This document shows, piece after piece, positions 48,545 through 55,131 of a stretch of 64,000 nt of DNA. Below the pieces are notes generated by a model. That model was not told the DNA's origin. It ran no database searches and saw only the letters and a list, made by a program, of their open reading frames with translations. Position numbers and translations under genes: made by a program. Each line of letters begins with the position of its first letter. Position 1 is the stretch's first letter. Origin of the DNA: Burkholderiales bacterium (GTDB taxonomy: Bacteria; Pseudomonadota; Gammaproteobacteria; Burkholderiales; Burkholderiaceae_C). The stretch is taken from assembly GCA_028868305.1 (NCBI GenBank), contig JAGWUS010000005.1, positions 21,098 through 85,097 on the forward strand. Reading direction: 5' to 3'.

Positions 48545-48763
48545 TCACTCGTCGCCCGAGGGTCCGGGTTCGCGCACCTGAAGCAGCAGATCTTCGGCCC
48601 GCAATTCGGTATCGGCAAAGATGACCTTGATCTTGCCTACGGTGCCGGTCTGCTGGGCGAGGCGCAAGAATTTGGCCTGCGCCGAGGCCTGTGCAAAGGC
48701 ACCGTGCTCGGCCAGCTTTTCCAGTTGCGCAAAAGGTTTGACCCGGAAAATGTAGTACGGCAC
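48545..48763 (-). CDS. small hypothetical protein (72 aa from the GTG)
   Basis: The ORF reads VPYYIFRVKPFAQLEKLAEHGAFAQASAQAKFLRLAQ... The GTG at 48761-48763 follows GAGGA with a 5-nt spacer, 8 nt after the S24 gene stop. I recognise no family. Confidence 0.35.
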   Translation of the reverse strand: MPYYIFRVKPFAQLEKLAEHGAFAQASAQAKFLRLAQQTGTVGKIKVIFADTELRAEDLLLQVREPGPSGDE

Positions 48764-48771
48764 GTTATTCC

Positions 48772-49089
48772 TCAAAGGTAGCTTTTACTGGCGCGGCGGC
48801 GCCCGGGCAAGGATTTCTGGATGATGACGCCGCGCACGGCCGAGAGATCGGCCAGCGGGATGTCGGAAAAGGCTGGGTTGAGGGCGTGCAGTCGCCAGCC
48901 CGATGCGTTGCGACAGAGCTGGCGAAAGATCCATTCGCCCCGGTGTTGGGCCAGTACATAGGCGCCATCGCGCAGCAGGCCATCGGGCTCGATAACGATG
49001 ATTTCACCTTCGTTGAATTCGGGCTCCATGCTGGTGCCGAGCACCCGCAGCACAAAGGATTCGCTGCCACTGCAGGCGCTCTCTTGCAT
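48772..49089 (-). CDS. stand-alone S24 (LexA/UmuD-type) peptidase domain, no HTH
   Basis: Contains VLGTSMEPEF (the Ser nucleophile motif G-x-S-M) and then GAYVLAQHRGEWIFRQL. The start is the ATG at 49087-49089, 11 nt after the upstream stop. Confidence 0.55.
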   Translation of the reverse strand: MQESACSGSESFVLRVLGTSMEPEFNEGEIIVIEPDGLLRDGAYVLAQHRGEWIFRQLCRNASGWRLHALNPAFSDIPLADLSAVRGVIIQKSLPGRRRASKSYL

Positions 49090-49100
49090 ATCCACCGTGC

Positions 49101-50600
49101 TCACACCAGCACTCCCACCGGCCGCGCCAGCACATTCGTGAAAATCTGAGCGGCGGGGATGCCGACCGCACGCAGCTCGGCATCCAGAGTGCAGACGAAT
49201 TGCTCGGGGCCGGCCAGGTAAAAATCGCACTCAATGTCGAACAGGTCGGTCCGCATGGCGCGCGCCATTTGCAGGGTGCCGAAGGTGATGTCGGTCTCAC
49301 TCAGCAACTCGTACTCGAACGGGTCCAGGGCTTCAGACCAGGCGCGGCACTGGTTGGCCAGGAAGTGGCCGTCGGGCTGGGTCGACAACCAGAACAGCGA
49401 CAGGGAGGGAGCTGACTCCAGCGCCAGGGCGTGTTCGATCAGGCTCTTGATGGGAGCGAAGCCCGCATCGCAGGCGGCAAACACCAGTGGCCGGTGGCCT
49501 TCGGCCAGCACGAACTCACCACAGGGCCCCCACACCGTGACCGCATCGCCGGCCTTGATGTTGCCGGAAAAAAGTTGCTGGGCGAACGGATCCTGTGCGT
49601 TGCGCGGGATGAAGAAGTGCAGGTTGCGGTCGTCGCAGGGGCAACTGGCCACCGGGTAGAGGGCGTGCAGATCGCTGCCGCCGGGCCCGGTCAGGCCCAG
49701 CGTGACGGACTGCCCGGCGAGAAAGCGCAAACGGTGGCTCCGTGGTGTCTGCAGGTGCAGCAATCGCGTGTCGGGTGCCAGGCTGCTTACGCCGCGCACC
49801 TGGGTCACTATCTGCTGCTGCGGGATGTCCTGCGGTCCGCTGGCTTCGAGCAATTCCAGGGTGAGTTCGCTACTGGCCGCCGTATGGGCGCACATGAGGG
49901 TGTAGCCCTGGCTTTTTTCGGCCTCGGACAGGGGGTAGTCGAAGGTCTGGGTCCTGGCGACCTGCCCCGAGATCACGCGCACCTTGCACATGCCACAGGT
50001 GCCGTTGCCGCAACCGTAGTTGAGCTTGAGGCCTGCCCGCAAGCCGGCCTGCAACAAGGTGTCGTGCCCCTCCACCGAGAACTCGTGTCCGCTGGGGCGA
50101 ACCATGACCTGTGCCGTCATGACTTTGAGCATATCGTCCATCACCGTGAGCAAATCGGCCTGTTCGGTGGCCAGCGCCTGGGCCAGCCCCTGATCGACAA
50201 AATCCTGCAACCCAGACAGCACCAGCGGGGTGGCTCCCTGGGCCTGCAGGGCATAGATGCGCTCCTGCAGGGCCACCACCAGGGCGTGGTAGCGCTGCAG
50301 GCAGCGCCGCACATCGGCCAGTTCCTGGGTCTGGTTAAACAGACGCTGCGCCAGCACTTCCTGGCTGGGCAGCAGGCGCTCACGGACGCGCTTGCCAAAG
50401 GCTTCGTCCTTGATACTGGCCACCCGCTCCAGCAGGCCGGATTCCTCGAGCTGGGTCGCCGGGTACAGGCGCAGTAACTCGTCGGTGGAGAGCAGCCCTT
50501 CGGTCAGCACCAGCGCGCCGTCACGCACCTGCTGCTGCAACGCACCGCGAGACACCCCCACCAACTGGGCGGCGCGCCAGACGGTCAGCCAATGCGTCAT
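49101..50600 (-). CDS. HTH (excisionase/MerR-like) + coiled-coil + plant-type [2Fe-2S] ferredoxin + FNR-like oxidoreductase fusion
   Basis: N-terminus WLTVWRAAQLVGVSRGALQQQVRDGAL. The [2Fe-2S] motif is CGNGTCGMCKV...C, and an FNR-like FAD/NAD module follows. The ATG at 50598-50600 overlaps the upstream TGA (ATGA). Confidence 0.7.
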   Translation of the reverse strand: MTHWLTVWRAAQLVGVSRGALQQQVRDGALVLTEGLLSTDELLRLYPATQLEESGLLERVASIKDEAFGKRVRERLLPSQEVLAQRLFNQTQELADVRRCLQRYHALVVALQERIYALQAQGATPLVLSGLQDFVDQGLAQALATEQADLLTVMDDMLKVMTAQVMVRPSGHEFSVEGHDTLLQAGLRAGLKLNYGCGNGTCGMCKVRVISGQVARTQTFDYPLSEAEKSQGYTLMCAHTAASSELTLELLEASGPQDIPQQQIVTQVRGVSSLAPDTRLLHLQTPRSHRLRFLAGQSVTLGLTGPGGSDLHALYPVASCPCDDRNLHFFIPRNAQDPFAQQLFSGNIKAGDAVTVWGPCGEFVLAEGHRPLVFAACDAGFAPIKSLIEHALALESAPSLSLFWLSTQPDGHFLANQCRAWSEALDPFEYELLSETDITFGTLQMARAMRTDLFDIECDFYLAGPEQFVCTLDAELRAVGIPAAQIFTNVLARPVGVLV

Positions 50601-51541
50601 AGCGAATCCTCCGCGCAATGCACTTCGACTTTGGGTGGCGTCACGCGCTCGTCGTGCACGTGGTCGAGATAGCGCGCCCGGTAGAGCAGGCGCGGGCACA
50701 CTGGGTCGTCAGTGAAACCGGTGCGGTCGTGCGGCACATTGTTGGCCACGATGCCCATGCCGGGCTGCATGAGCAGGCGGAACACCCAGGGCGGGTTGGA
50801 GGCCAGCAATTGCTCGATGAAAGCCACCGCCGCACGCGTGGGCGTGTCGTTCCTCCACTCAATGCTGCGGATGCGCGCGGTGTAGCGCATCTGCAGCCCG
50901 CCGTCAGCGCGCAGGTAGAACACCGGACCACTTTGCGCGGGGCGCGCCACGCCACATTCATCGGTGCGCTCGGGGATGGTCATGGCATCAGGCGCCATAA
51001 GTGCGCGCACCCAATCGGGGTTGGCGTCGCGCAAGGCCATGTAGATCATCTCGTGGTCGGCCAGGCCACTCACGCCGCCCTCGCCCGCGCTGCGCACGCA
51101 GTGCAGGATCATGCCCTCGATGCGCCGCGCCTGCGGGTGGTAGTAGCCATCGGTGTGCCATTTGATGGGTTTGTTGGTGTAGGGGATGAAGTCGGCGCGT
51201 GGTCCGCCCTCATCATCCCCGGAAACAGCAATGGACGAAACACCGTCCTCGTCGGCCAGCCAGTTGGTGTCGAGTCGGCGCAGGCCGAGTTGGGCACCAA
51301 GGAGGCGCGGCAGTTCCTTGTCTTCAGCCGTCACCGGGCTGCGATAAAGCGACATGTTGGTTCGCGCGCACATCGCAAGGATGGCCGCTCGCTCTGTCGC
51401 GGTGAGCGCGCGCGGATCGGCAACATCCACGATCAGTTCCTCCACCCGCGCCGGATGCGCAGCCCGCTTGGCGACGCGCCAAGCGGCGTAGAGATCAGGC
51501 CGATTGAGGTCAAAGGAACTGTCACTGGCACGCATATTCAT
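50597..51541 (-). CDS. TauD/TfdA-fold (Fe(II)/2-oxoglutarate dioxygenase-like) protein
   Basis: An HxD motif in KWHTDGYYH, GEGGVSGLADHEMIY, and a distal His in VANNVPHDRTGF. The start is the ATG at 51539-51541, after GGAGG with a 7-nt spacer. Confidence 0.65.
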   Translation of the reverse strand: MNMRASDSSFDLNRPDLYAAWRVAKRAAHPARVEELIVDVADPRALTATERAAILAMCARTNMSLYRSPVTAEDKELPRLLGAQLGLRRLDTNWLADEDGVSSIAVSGDDEGGPRADFIPYTNKPIKWHTDGYYHPQARRIEGMILHCVRSAGEGGVSGLADHEMIYMALRDANPDWVRALMAPDAMTIPERTDECGVARPAQSGPVFYLRADGGLQMRYTARIRSIEWRNDTPTRAAVAFIEQLLASNPPWVFRLLMQPGMGIVANNVPHDRTGFTDDPVCPRLLYRARYLDHVHDERVTPPKVEVHCAEDSL

Positions 51542-51594: not shown

Positions 51595-52203
51595 CTACTC
51601 TCCACTCATGCTGCTGCGTCGGACCGGGCGTGGCTCAATGGAAAACACCCCCTCCATGCCGCGCTGCACCATCTGCAGCGCCTCGGGCGCCTCGATCGCC
51701 ATGATCTGGTCGATCACCCAACGCTGGTCCTTGGCCGGCATCAGGGTCTCGATGCGGTGCCCCAAGTAGCGCACGAAGCCAAAGTCCGGACCTTCCGGGC
51801 CATGGGAAAAATCAGCGTAGGCATCGGCCTGCTCGTTGCACAGGTCGATGAACTGGTCACGCCGGCTTTCCTCGCCCGGCGCTGGTGGAGGCAACCATTC
51901 GACTTCGCTTTCCTCCAGGATTTCGGCGACGCGCCGCACCAGAGCAGTGGTGAACTCAATCCGCAGTTCGGAGGACATGCGTTCGTAGGCCATGCGGTCC
52001 TCCACCTGAACCAGGAACACAAGCACCTCGCGCATGAAGGCGAAGTACTGCGGCCCGACATCGATGTCGAACTTGGCCTCGCGCATCTGCTTGAGCATGT
52101 TCTGCGTCACGCGCCAGGTGATGAAGGCCATGGCGCTGGCGGTTTGCTGCGCGGTCTTGGGCGCCTCGGTCTGGAACCACTGGCTCTTGATGCGTATGGC
52201 CAT
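51595..52203 (-). CDS. hypothetical protein, predicted helical, no family recognised
   Basis: 202-aa ORF with normal-looking composition, co-oriented with and 53 nt upstream of the TauD-like gene. Confidence 0.5.
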   Translation of the reverse strand: MAIRIKSQWFQTEAPKTAQQTASAMAFITWRVTQNMLKQMREAKFDIDVGPQYFAFMREVLVFLVQVEDRMAYERMSSELRIEFTTALVRRVAEILEESEVEWLPPPAPGEESRRDQFIDLCNEQADAYADFSHGPEGPDFGFVRYLGHRIETLMPAKDQRWVIDQIMAIEAPEALQMVQRGMEGVFSIEPRPVRRSSMSGE

Positions 52204-52358: not shown

Positions 52359-52688
52359 TCAATACCCGCCTTTGCCCAGCGGCTGCGGTAGCCCTGCCAC
52401 CTTGGCCGCCTGCTTGGCCGGCCCCAGCGGGAACAGGTCGTACAGGTACTTGCTTTCCACGTCAGGTCTTATTTCCGCGAAACCCTTGAGCATGTTGCGA
52501 AAGTTGGGGGTATGGCCGTGCTCGCGGTACTGATCGCGCATGTAGTTGATGACTTCCCAGTGTGCATCCGTCAGCGTGATGCCTTCGGCTTCGGCAATCA
52601 CTTGCACAGCCTCTTCGCTCAGCTCGGGTTCCAGTAAATAGCCCTCGGCATCGGTGTGTAGTTCAACGCCATTGATGTTGTAGCCCAT
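52359..52688 (-). CDS. DsrC/TusE-family protein lacking both conserved C-terminal cysteines (regulatory-type paralogue)
   Basis: 109 aa, alignable over its whole length with the true DsrC at 57394 (TDAEGYL, LTDAHWEVINYMR, SKYLYDLFP.GPAKQA). It ends ...AAKVAGLPQPLGKGGY, where DsrC ends ...ACKIAGLPKPTGCV. The start is the ATG at 52686-52688, after GGAGA. Confidence 0.8.
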   Translation of the reverse strand: MGYNINGVELHTDAEGYLLEPELSEEAVQVIAEAEGITLTDAHWEVINYMRDQYREHGHTPNFRNMLKGFAEIRPDVESKYLYDLFPLGPAKQAAKVAGLPQPLGKGGY

Positions 52689-52722: not shown

Positions 52723-53313
52723 TCAGCTGCCCACGGCAGCGGCCGATTTGTGCGGCACAAAGATGCCGCAGCCCAGCAGCCGGTGGGGCCCCAGCCCTTG
52801 CTCCTGCAGGCGCCGCGAATCCGCCAGGGACAGTGCATGCAGCATCAGGCTGAAGGTGGTCAGCACCTGCCCTGGTAGCTTTTGGCTGCCGCGCTTGCCG
52901 CACACCGTCTGCGCACGCACCGCCAGAGCCTGCAACTCGCCGGCCACGGCCTCCATGAATATCCCTTCGTCGACACCGGCCGCGGCCACGCCTGGGGCAT
53001 ACAGTGTGGTGTGCGGCAGCAGTTCGCGCAGATGGGGAGCTCCCAGTTGCAGGGTACTGCCGTCCACTTCGATCGTCCGCCCGGCCAGGGTCTGCGCCAG
53101 GGCCACCCGCGCGCGCGGCAGGCGCAGCAGCAAGCGGGTGCGCTGCGACAGCAGTGCCTGACTTTCGCCGCCGGACACCAGCTTCAACGGATGTATACCG
53201 GCTAGTGGCTCCTCCGGCAGCCAGGGCAGGGCCTGCTGCAAGGCCTGTTGCAGGGCCTGGGCATGGTCACGCGGCAGGCTGTGCCCGGCCAGTGGAAAGA
53301 CCATATCAACCAT
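52723..53313 (-). CDS. orphan Cas6-like (RAMP) protein, possibly Cas6/Cmx6 family
   Basis: The C-terminal GLGPHRLLGCG fits the Cas6 glycine-rich loop G-h-G-x5-G-h-G exactly. The N-terminus (VDMVFPLAGHSLPRDHAQAL...LPWL...GIHPL) matches my recollection of Cmx6-type proteins. No CRISPR array or other cas gene is in the window. The start is taken at the ATG at 53313. Confidence 0.45.
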   Translation of the reverse strand: MVDMVFPLAGHSLPRDHAQALQQALQQALPWLPEEPLAGIHPLKLVSGGESQALLSQRTRLLLRLPRARVALAQTLAGRTIEVDGSTLQLGAPHLRELLPHTTLYAPGVAAAGVDEGIFMEAVAGELQALAVRAQTVCGKRGSQKLPGQVLTTFSLMLHALSLADSRRLQEQGLGPHRLLGCGIFVPHKSAAAVGS

Positions 53314-53339
53314 GGTGGCTTCATCCGGATCATCCTGGC

Positions 53340-53564
53340 TCACGGGCGCTCCTGATCCTGTTGCGATTGGGCCCAGCGCAGTAGCGCCTGTCCCCACAGT
53401 TCTGCCGTCTGGGGATCGATATCGAAAATGGTGAAACGGCTCTTTTCGCGGATACGGGTGCGCAGGAAACTCATCCCGCCGGTGTCGAAATCGACCTGCT
53501 GCAATTCGATCTCTTGCCCGCCAAGCGGCACCCTGAAGTTGTCGAGCGAGGTGATCTGGGTCAT
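53340..53564 (-). CDS. small hypothetical protein (74 aa), first gene of the block divergent from dsrA
   Basis: The ORF reads MTQITSLDNFRVPLGGQEIELQQVDFDTGGMSFLRTRIREKSRFTIFDIDPQTAELWGQALL... I preferred the ATG at 53564 over the track's TTG at 53594. Confidence 0.4.
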   Translation of the reverse strand: MTQITSLDNFRVPLGGQEIELQQVDFDTGGMSFLRTRIREKSRFTIFDIDPQTAELWGQALLRWAQSQQDQERP

Positions 53565-53826
53565 GTCTGGGCCTGCTTTTGTTCGGTCCGGCAATGCAAA
53601 GGAATGCTATTGACGCAATTCCGCGCTGGCCCGTCTATAACCGGGACGGGTGGTGACACATAACCCTTTTGGGTAGCTTCACATACTCAACGAGGGGGAT
53701 AGCGAATCAAAGGCAACGCCGCCTACGATGCTCTTCATAGATAAAAAAAGAGCCGCATAAGCGCTCGAGACCCGTCAGTACAGCATTCCCGCCGTCTCAA
53801 AAACGGCATTCCGACAGGAGACAAAA

Positions 53827-55131
53827 ATGGCCAAAAAAATGCATGACACCCCCATGCTCGACCAGCTCGAGAGTGGGCCATGGCCGAGCTTCGTGACCGG
53901 TCTGAAGCGACTGGCCAAGGACAAGGACTACATGGTTGACCTCATGGGTCAGCTCGAAACCTCGTACAAAACCCGCAAGGGCTATTGGAAAGGCGGCACG
54001 GTCGGCGTGTTCGGTTACGGTGGCGGCGTGATTCCGCGCTTCACTGAACTCAAGGATGCCGACGGCAAACCCCAGTTTCCGGATGCCGCTGAATTTCACA
54101 CCCTGCGCGTGCAGCCACCGGCTGGCATGCACTACAACACGGACATACTTCGCAAGTTCTGCGACATCTGGGAAAGGCATGGCTCGGGCCTGATCGCCTT
54201 CCACGGCCAGTCGGGTGACATCATGTTCCAGGGCGCGAAGACCGACAAGGTGCAGGATGCCTTCGATGAGCTCAACGAATTGGGGTTCGATCTCGGCGGA
54301 GCCGGCCCGGCGGTCCGTACCTCCATGTCCTGCGTCGGCGCTGCGCGCTGCGAGCAGTCCTGCTACGACGAAGCCCGGGCCCATCGCCAGGTACTCAACA
54401 CATTCCTGGACGACATCCACCGCCCAGCCCTGCCCTACAAATTCAAGTTCAAATTTTCTGGCTGCCCGAACGACTGCATGAACTCGATCCAGCGCTCGGA
54501 CATGGCCGTGATCGGCACCTGGCGCGACAACATTCGTACCGACGAAACGCTGGCGCGCAAATGGTTTGCCAAGCACGGTATGAACGAACTGGTCAACGAC
54601 GTGGTCAGCCGCTGCCCGACCAAGACCATCATGTTGAAGGAAATCAAGGACGTCGCCAAAGGTCCGAAGATTTCCAGCGTCAAGATAAACGACACGCAGT
54701 GCCTGGAGATCGACAACAGCAACTGCGTGCGCTGCATGCACTGCATCAATGTGATGACGGGCGCCCTAGCCCACGGCACCGACACCGGAGCCACTGTCCT
54801 GGTGGGTGGCAAGCGCACGCTCAAGATCGGCGATCTGATGGGCACCGTAGTGGTGCCCTTTATGCCCCTGAAGACCGAAGAGGACTACAAAGCCCTGGTC
54901 GAGCTGGGCCAGAAAACCATCGACTTCTTCGCCGAAAACGCGTTGGAGCACGAGCGTACCGGCGAGATGATCGAGCGTATCGGCCTGGTCAACTTCCTCG
55001 AAGGCATCGGCCTCGAAATCGACCCGAACATGGTCTCCACACCGCGCACCAATCCCTATGTGCGCGCCGATGGCTGGGACGATGAAGTGGCCAAGATCAA
55101 TGCCCGCAAGCAAGCCGCTGCTGGCGGCTGA
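53827..55131 (+). CDS. dsrA: dissimilatory sulfite reductase alpha subunit
   Basis: 434 aa with siroheme/Fe-S motifs SMSCVGAARCEQSC and KFKFSGCPNDC plus a ferredoxin insert (CPTK...CVRCMHC). An SD (AGGAGA) precedes the ATG. Confidence 0.95.
   Translation: MAKKMHDTPMLDQLESGPWPSFVTGLKRLAKDKDYMVDLMGQLETSYKTRKGYWKGGTVGVFGYGGGVIPRFTELKDADGKPQFPDAAEFHTLRVQPPAGMHYNTDILRKFCDIWERHGSGLIAFHGQSGDIMFQGAKTDKVQDAFDELNELGFDLGGAGPAVRTSMSCVGAARCEQSCYDEARAHRQVLNTFLDDIHRPALPYKFKFKFSGCPNDCMNSIQRSDMAVIGTWRDNIRTDETLARKWFAKHGMNELVNDVVSRCPTKTIMLKEIKDVAKGPKISSVKINDTQCLEIDNSNCVRCMHCINVMTGALAHGTDTGATVLVGGKRTLKIGDLMGTVVVPFMPLKTEEDYKALVELGQKTIDFFAENALEHERTGEMIERIGLVNFLEGIGLEIDPNMVSTPRTNPYVRADGWDDEVAKINARKQAAAGG

Follow-up and report, generated by a model that had tools for sequence, protein, structure and literature searches.

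When a gene for an oxygenase runs into a gene that resembles a ferredoxin reductase, it may be asked whether the two encode an enzyme and its electron donor or something else. This question is raised by a 64,000-nucleotide (nt) stretch of DNA from a Burkholderiales bacterium (assembly GCA_028868305.1, contig JAGWUS010000005.1, positions 21,098 to 85,097 of the forward strand), referred to at its full length as the window. On its minus strand, the gene for a 314-amino acid (aa) Fe(II)/2-oxoglutarate (2OG) oxygenase of the TauD superfamily (50597..51541, Pfam TauD) is followed by the gene for a 499-aa protein (P0001; 49101..50600), which combines a helix-turn-helix (HTH)-like head, a helical linker, a [2Fe-2S] ferredoxin domain and an FNR-fold module that appears to be flavin-less. 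The first gene is the already named dsrQ. Our preferred reading, to which we would give not quite an even chance, is that the two genes are co-transcribed and encode dsr accessory proteins, namely the oxygenase DsrQ and a regulator that may sense redox state or sulfane sulfur, rather than an oxygenase-reductase couple.

Features of DsrQ and the 499-aa protein

As recounted in PMC7596348, Lenk et al. (2012, ISME J 6:2178) gave the name dsrQ to a tauD-like gene transcribed away from dsrA. By the same account, they found it in the majority of aerobic chemotrophic sulfur oxidisers and raised the speculation that its product could release sulfite from sulfonates. The window gene shares with the gene so named its TauD fold, its linkage to dsrA and its transcription away from dsrA, and differs in having four genes between itself and dsrA, which lies 2.3 kb away on the opposite strand, and in being followed by the 499-aa gene and a gene for an S24 peptidase domain. 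Orthologues of the window protein with 38-54% identity are encoded directly divergent from dsrA in at least 11 loci, mostly within 350-600 nt. The window gene starts at MNMRAS, preceded 7 nt upstream by GGAGG; it could also be read from 51592, a longer version that homologues do not support. At its other end, the gene closes with GAT TCG CTA TGA, the ATG of which starts the 499-aa gene (context GCTATGACG), and the ATGA overlap described in the original prediction is real (50597..50600, by direct reading of the sequence).

The Pfam TauD profile (PF02668) matches the dsrQ product with an E-value of 5.5e-16 (59.7 bits, the gathering score being 27) over residues 54-306 of an open reading frame (ORF) of 331 aa. 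The HxD in WHTDGYYH and the distal His in VPHDR, which the original prediction had noted, are both present on the minus strand, the former in the segment IKWHTDGYYH (51137-51166) and the latter, H271, together with an Arg cluster in NNVPHDRTGFTDDPVCPRLLYRARY (50669-50743). Among 36 diverse DsrQ sequences of 34-77% identity, the run W128-H-T-D-G-Y-Y (including H129 and D131), H271, R273, R284, R288 and R290 are invariant, and with H129, D131, H271 and R284 thus fixed, the facial triad and the 2OG-binding Arg, which had been singled out earlier as residues to inspect, are intact. R284 stands 13 residues past H271, within the span of 10-15 residues expected for the 2OG-binding Arg of the superfamily, and the HxD and distal His align to the HtD and vlHaR segments of TmpA. 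The 2OG-binding Arg of BBOX-type enzymes likewise lies 13 residues past the distal His.

By both profile and fold, the latter using an AlphaFold2 (AF2) model with a predicted local distance difference test score (pLDDT) of 91.8, the solved structures closest to DsrQ are TmpA (6NPB) and BBOX1 (3O2G), at 18-20% identity and a TM-score of about 0.6 (profile E 1.8e-6; Foldseek E 1.7e-13). The HxD, the distal His and the Arg 13 residues later align in both; their N-terminal domain has no counterpart in DsrQ, which is some 70 residues shorter. TauD, the type member of PF02668, shares with DsrQ the superfamily fold and the iron-binding triad; in the fold search, its structures come no higher than about 42nd place, at 14-19% identity. 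NCBIfam equivalog models score DsrQ far below their cut-offs (TMLD, 28 bits vs 268; BBOX, 21.8 vs 415; TmpA, 18.1 vs 400), and in the same scan neither the TauD nor the AtsK equivalog model matched. A standard taurine dioxygenase, the identity that would have told against the original prediction, was accordingly rejected. DsrQ looks instead like an active Fe(II)/2OG- and O2-dependent oxygenase of the TmpA/BBOX-like branch, where it forms a subfamily of its own.

In the 499-aa protein, residues 162-250 (49851..50117, minus strand) form the plant-type [2Fe-2S] ferredoxin domain that had been recognised from its CGNGTCGMCKV motif (Pfam Fer2, E 3.9e-15). We compared 77 family members of 32-83% identity, using an alignment with BenC as a guide to the motifs, and the cluster ligands C197, C202, C205 and C237 (CGNGTCGMC...C237) are present in every one. 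The FNR-fold module that follows (residues 262-490, 49131..49817, minus strand), defined by the BenC alignment, the column counts and Foldseek, gives a weak FAD_binding_6 match; a Pfam search of the whole protein at E<0.01 found neither an NAD_binding domain nor an HTH. The AF2 model has a pLDDT of 90, and a Foldseek search with its C-terminal 340 residues returns BenC (1KRH), T4moF (4WQM), CarAd (7C3A) and GcoB (5OGX), which, together with AscD/E3, are class-IB oxygenase reductases in which a [2Fe-2S] domain likewise precedes the two-domain FNR fold. BenC is also the best NCBIfam model for the protein, with 115 bits where the cut-off is 430.

Unlike these reductases, the 499-aa family has lost the RxYS, GGxGxxP and YxCGP motifs and has gained a Cys-Pro-Cys (CPC) motif. 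The FAD motif RxYS reads ALYP in the window, and its Arg is kept in five of the 77 members while its Ser has become Pro in 44. FAACDAGFAP aligns where BenC has GGTGIAP, and across the family the Gly-Gly of GGxGxxP is replaced by C, Y, F, L or W followed by Asp (40 members), Gly (17) or Glu (9). YxCGP appears as YLAGP in the window, with Cys changed to Ala in 63/77. Directly after the former flavin strand, all 77 members carry the CPC motif as ASCPC[D/N] (C320-P-C322, codons at 49635-49643, minus strand), and a further cysteine, Cys418 in N-x-C-R-x-W (within 49338-49355, minus strand), is kept in 69. For comparison, canonical reductases of related genomes, which are the next-best Fer2-FNR matches there (L004-L010; E 1e-38 to 1e-42), served as controls; they keep RRSYS or RRSFS as well as SGTGFAP, and read A-P-H at the position of the family's C-P-C. 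The original prediction was right to call FAACDAGFAP a degenerate dinucleotide motif and understated the case, as all of the cofactor motifs are lost and CPC is fixed; its description of the protein as a "complete" ferredoxin-reductase chain fails, with the FAD motif degenerate as well as the NAD motif. Judged by these motifs, the 499-aa protein is unlikely to be a plain NAD(P)H-dependent reductase, and binding of FAD and NAD(P)H does not seem plausible. Databases usually label the family "2Fe-2S cluster-binding protein" or, wrongly, "CDP-6-deoxy-delta-3,4-glucoseen reductase", the latter deriving from AscD/E3. We found no description of a CPC-type Fer2/pseudo-FNR family or of its linkage to dsr in the searchable literature, although such a search cannot be exhaustive.

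The long forms of the family further differ from class-IB reductases in an extra extension of 160 residues, HTH-like and helical. Residues 1-45 (50466..50600, minus strand) make up a putative excisionase/MerR-like, HTH_17-like DNA-binding unit, modelled by AF2 as a beta-alpha-alpha-beta-alpha arrangement at residues 4-45. Across the 77 sequences, which span several lineages, R18, G35 and P47 of this head are invariant and A10, A11, L13, G15, L21, Q22 and G28 nearly so. Within the first 60 residues, HTH_17 gave sub-threshold matches in five of eight family members (best E 2.4e-4); the window's own segment scored 14.6 bits (E 0.042), where the cut-off is 27. No MerR profile matched, either in the whole-protein Pfam search or in the scan of the first 60 residues of the window protein and its relatives. 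The excisionase/MerR-like HTH proposed earlier is likely, and the predicted secondary structure is compatible with it. The linker, earlier put at some 130 aa, corresponds to residues 56-161 (50118..50435, minus strand), which are predicted to be helical, with helices at 56-75, 80-121 (42 residues), 125-143 and 150-161 (DSSP on the AF2 model; pLDDT about 67-87). In its architecture, and in that alone, the long form resembles MerR-family sensors such as the [2Fe-2S] protein SoxR, in which an HTH at the N-terminus is joined through a long helix to a sensor at the C-terminus. The [2Fe-2S] cluster of the 499-aa protein is the candidate sensing element and would lie in a whole ferredoxin domain, whereas the SoxR-type cluster is held in a short Cys loop.

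Linkage to dsr and distribution

Linkage of the two genes was followed in 80 loci, taken at species level and recovered with DsrQ. Almost all of them carry the label Burkholderiales or Betaproteobacteria, and the closest are from Curvibacter and Hylemonella. Wherever there was room for the gene concerned, the 499-aa gene follows dsrQ (74/74 loci) and dsrA is divergent from the cassette (57/57). The ATGA overlap is found in only about 15 of the 74 loci, gaps of 3-112 nt separating the genes in the others, which qualifies the tight coupling put forward in the original prediction. A gene for an S24 domain comes after the 499-aa gene in 66 of the 80 loci. The pair is part of a dsr accessory cassette of seven to eight genes and not a free-standing two-gene unit, and both the adjacency of dsrQ to the 499-aa gene and their translational coupling are specific to this lineage. 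The same cassette order is seen in L011, L013 and L015 (Serpentinimonas, Rhodoferax and one further assembly), where a convergent tusA-dsrE2-yeeE group comes next. The order of the genes between dsrA and dsrQ is likewise shared by all 57 loci with room for them. In two loci the 499-aa gene is apparently truncated at its 5' end (L036, 7646-8641, 331 aa; L094, 11764-12492, 242 aa), which may reflect decay or assembly errors.

The wider distribution was examined in an even set of 400 genomes from the class to which the window belongs, with membership of the 499-aa family set at E<=1e-50. Of these, 124 carry dsrA and 125 encode a DsrQ homologue; the two occur together in 118, seven have dsrQ only and six dsrA only. 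In most of these genomes, dsrQ and dsrA lie on opposite strands, 350-600 nt apart. The 499-aa family is present in 80 genomes, 77 of which have dsrQ, 73 dsrA and 78 at least one of the two; Fisher p-values for this linkage are extreme but ignore phylogeny. The co-conservation of the two genes on which the original prediction depended is thus borne out, by their adjacency in related loci and by the near confinement of the family to dsrQ-positive genomes. Conversely, the family is absent from 48 of the 125 dsrQ-positive and 51 of the 124 dsrA-positive genomes, and occurs in one of the six genomes with dsrA but without dsrQ. The full-length form is found in 38 of the 400 genomes, and clustering at 50% left dozens of full-length representatives, with identities down to about 33%. 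Many other members are short forms of about 330 aa that keep CPC and lack the HTH and linker; no separate HTH genes were found beside them. In many dsr-positive genomes (including L129-L133 and L135-L141) there are two dsrQ paralogues, and the copies most like that of the window (50-54%) often adjoin neither dsrA nor other cassette genes.

Outside this lineage the genes are arranged differently. In 29 distant loci with a full-length form, neither dsrQ nor any other cassette gene is present within 1.5 kb, and two others lie beside MMPL or kdsB/hrcA genes. In G059 (L151, 16210-17187), a short form directly follows dsrS at the 3' end of dsrABEFHCMKLJOP-dsrN-dsrR-dsrS, in which dsrN and dsrR are confirmed by Pfam, so that this CPC-type gene takes what looks like the closing position of the dsr operon. 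The family gene is likewise positioned downstream of dsrP in G164 and G420, which have short forms, and in G192, which has the long form. The genomic context of the family is dsr, in contrast to the oxygenase operons in which class-IB reductases are encoded. In L150 (2681-3688), L152 (17874-18869) and L153 (2169-3608), a CPC-type gene stands on the dsr strand a few kb past dsrP, the intervening genes being unannotated.

Four genomes (G240, G153, G311 and G355) show the order dsrA, then, divergently, dsrQ, a Cas6-like gene and a DsrC-like gene. The six protein types DsrQ, Fer2/pseudo-FNR, DsrC-like, S24, Cas6-like and 202-aa are a dispersed dsr accessory set that is gathered into one operon in Comamonadaceae. 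The idea that the S24 gene always accompanies the 499-aa family was considered and rejected, as it was seen in this lineage and in L154 only and the flanks of the 29 distant full-length loci lack it. In L154 (2776-7752, genome G139), cysG (sirohaem synthase), an S24 gene, dsrQ, a Cas6-like gene and a short Fer2/FNR gene lie on one strand, an instance of the accessory set linked to sirohaem synthesis.

Other cassette genes and the dsrA-proximal DNA

Read from the dsrA side, the cassette of the window consists of genes for DUF6967 (53340-53594), a Cas6/Cmx6-like protein (52723-53397, as ORF), a Cys-less DsrC-like protein (52359-52688) and a 202-aa protein (51595-52203), followed by dsrQ, the 499-aa gene, the S24 gene and a 76-aa ORF, all on the minus strand; dsrA starts on the plus strand at 53827 and runs away from them. 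The S24 gene (48772..49089) begins 11 nt downstream of the 499-aa gene and encodes a stand-alone LexA/UmuD-like peptidase domain (Pfam Peptidase_S24, E 3e-17). The 76-aa ORF directly 3' of it (48545-48775) matches in position the 72-aa genes of L011 and L013. In L011 a 148-aa gene comes next, for which the window seems to have no counterpart, a decayed EAL gene lying there instead. The 202-aa protein has no Pfam or NCBIfam match, and its gene precedes dsrQ in 79 of the 80 related loci. Homologues of 31-34% identity are encoded within a few kb of the set in L148, L149 and L155, in the last case convergent with the short Fer2/FNR gene. The DsrC-like gene is missing from its usual place in L036, one of the two loci with a truncated 499-aa gene.

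Between dsrA and the DUF6967 gene, a block of about 95 nt (53620-53715) is strongly conserved and recurs in L017-L096, among which 57 distinct sequences were compared. Its sequence on the cassette strand is GCTATCaCCCTCGTTGAGTAT-N6-GCTACCCAtttGGGCTATAt-N6-CACCCGTcCCGGTtATAGACGG, with the short inverted repeats ACCC-N4-GGGT and CCCGTC-N9-GACGGG; the block may serve as an operator or promoter, or form an RNA hairpin. In this dsrA-cassette intergenic region no sigma-70-like promoter was found, and neither sigma-54 nor MerR-type promoter spacing could be fitted by eye; the long spacer of MerR target promoters (19-20 bp, with a dyad) was likewise not identified. A palindrome of the form TA(T/C)CCC-N3-5-GGGATA recurs in the regions between dsrA and dsrQ of L148, L149, L150, L151, L152, L155, L142 and L144 (for example, TTATCCCGAATGGGATAA in L152 and TATCCCCTTTGGGATAT in L155) and is found whether or not the genome encodes a long-form Fer2/FNR protein. 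A conserved dsr regulator might bind there, or the palindrome might form a hairpin for the Cas6-like protein. The generic palindrome TAYCC-N4-6-GGRTA misses the window's own site and is rarer in the genome than its control (17 vs 33), and this search gave no evidence of a regulon.

Regulator, redox partner or sulfur-transfer protein

The reading that we prefer, a co-regulated oxygenase and Fe-S/thiol sensor, would explain the layout of the long form in the following way. An HTH-like head would bind DNA and the long helix would serve for dimerisation, as in MerR-type proteins, and the [2Fe-2S] domain together with the cysteine-bearing pseudo-FNR module would act as the C-terminal sensor. The cluster and the CPC thiols would report the redox or sulfur state of the cell, and the protein would set transcription from the divergent dsr and cassette promoters. 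The analysis establishes the domain content, the loss of motifs, the CPC signature and the linkage to dsr, both in gene order and across genomes. Such sensing, the DNA binding, its regulatory target and any activity of DsrQ are inferred, and the transcription-factor role of the long form is read from its architecture. Other parts of the cassette also resemble regulators, namely the Cys-less DsrC-like protein, the S24 domain and the Cas6-like protein. 2OG oxygenases are not known to depend on a protein reductase. On this ground, and because the FAD and NAD(P)H sites are lost and 48 of the 125 dsrQ-positive genomes do without the family, an oxygenase-reductase couple was downgraded; the adjacency that had suggested it is also lineage-specific.

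Several points weigh against a regulator. The HTH assignment stays below the Pfam threshold. About half of the family consists of short forms that have neither HTH nor linker and yet show the same association with dsr, and DNA binding is therefore not the core function of the family. No operator could be assigned, and lineages that lack the long form nevertheless have the conserved intergenic block and the palindromes. Finally, the loss of the canonical motifs leaves room for an unusual flavin or another cofactor, which the 499-aa protein may bind. Of the redox-sensing transcription factor envisaged in the original prediction, then, the part that stands is that the protein is probably not a plain reductase, while its regulatory role would belong to the long form at most.

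The family could instead serve DsrQ as a redox partner that is independent of NAD(P)H, with the CPC dithiol or some other donor feeding the [2Fe-2S] cluster, so as to keep the DsrQ iron at Fe(II) after uncoupled turnover or to supply electrons for a non-canonical reaction. The intact cluster ligands, the unbroken adjacency of the two genes in the 74 related loci, some 15 of them with the ATGA overlap, and the scarcity of the family where dsrQ is missing (three of its 80 genomes, and one of the six with dsrA alone) would all fit such a role. We nonetheless consider it unlikely, given the large share of dsrQ-positive genomes with no family member and the fact that the genes are usually far apart outside the Comamonadaceae-type cassette, none of the 29 distant full-length loci adjoining dsrQ; it would also leave the HTH-like head without a role and give DsrQ a reductase-like partner of a kind on which 2OG oxygenases are not known to rely. 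A more ordinary pairing, of a sulfite-yielding taurine or sulfonate dioxygenase with a standard class-IB monooxygenase reductase, could draw on the Pfam TauD match, on BenC as best NCBIfam model for the partner and on the sulfonate desulfonation that has been speculated for DsrQ (PMC7596348). It is hardly credible in light of the BenC score of barely more than a quarter of the cut-off, the lost FAD and NAD motifs, the position of DsrQ nearest to TmpA/BBOX with TauD far lower and no TauD or AtsK equivalog, and a strict dsr linkage that has no counterpart in sulfonate-assimilation genes.

A role within the rDsr pathway itself is the other alternative of substance. The 499-aa protein would then be a component for sulfur or electron transfer, a ferredoxin-linked oxidoreductase that acts through CPC on disulfides, persulfides or trisulfides of DsrC, TusA or DsrE-type carriers, with the N-terminal extension used for dimerisation or partner binding. 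The short form placed directly after dsrS in G059, the members downstream of dsrP in G164, G420 and G192, the conservation of CPC and Cys418 alongside a redox cluster, and the tusA-dsrE2-yeeE group just downstream of the cassette in relatives are what such a component might lead one to expect. We are doubtful of it, as 51 of the 124 dsrA-positive genomes lack the family, which is not compatible with a core step of the pathway, and as the head is conserved in the manner of a nucleic-acid-binding unit. In addition, no FNR fold is known to have a CxC active site. A more elaborate form of the regulatory reading can be drawn, in which the accessory set of DsrQ, Fer2/pseudo-FNR, DsrC-like, S24, Cas6-like and 202-aa proteins forms a circuit that controls dissimilatory sulfur oxidation in response to O2, redox state and sulfur: DsrQ would sense O2 by hydroxylating a cassette protein, following the logic of PHD/FIH enzymes, and the 499-aa protein would integrate the redox or persulfide state of its [2Fe-2S] cluster and CPC thiols and bind the conserved dsrA-proximal DNA. 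We regard this circuit as improbable; if true, a flavin-less ferredoxin-reductase fold would for the first time be seen as the basis of a transcription factor.

In conclusion, the oxidative Dsr pathway is a main bacterial route of sulfur oxidation in sediments, groundwater and wastewater, and its regulation and accessory functions are poorly understood. While dsrQ had been an orphan name since 2012, it tracks dsrA almost one to one across the class, with its catalytic residues intact. A previously unnamed family travels with it, in which the FNR fold is retained and the flavin and NAD(P)H sites have been exchanged for Cys-Pro-Cys. With dsrQ already named, what is new here is an FNR-superfamily protein that appears to have turned into a flavin-less, cysteine-bearing module, fused to a putative HTH in half of the cases. 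The annotation of this family can be corrected accordingly, its signature being ASCPC[DN] with neither RxYS nor GxG. Taken together, this provides sulfur microbiology with two candidate proteins for the control of dsr by oxygen, redox state or sulfane sulfur.

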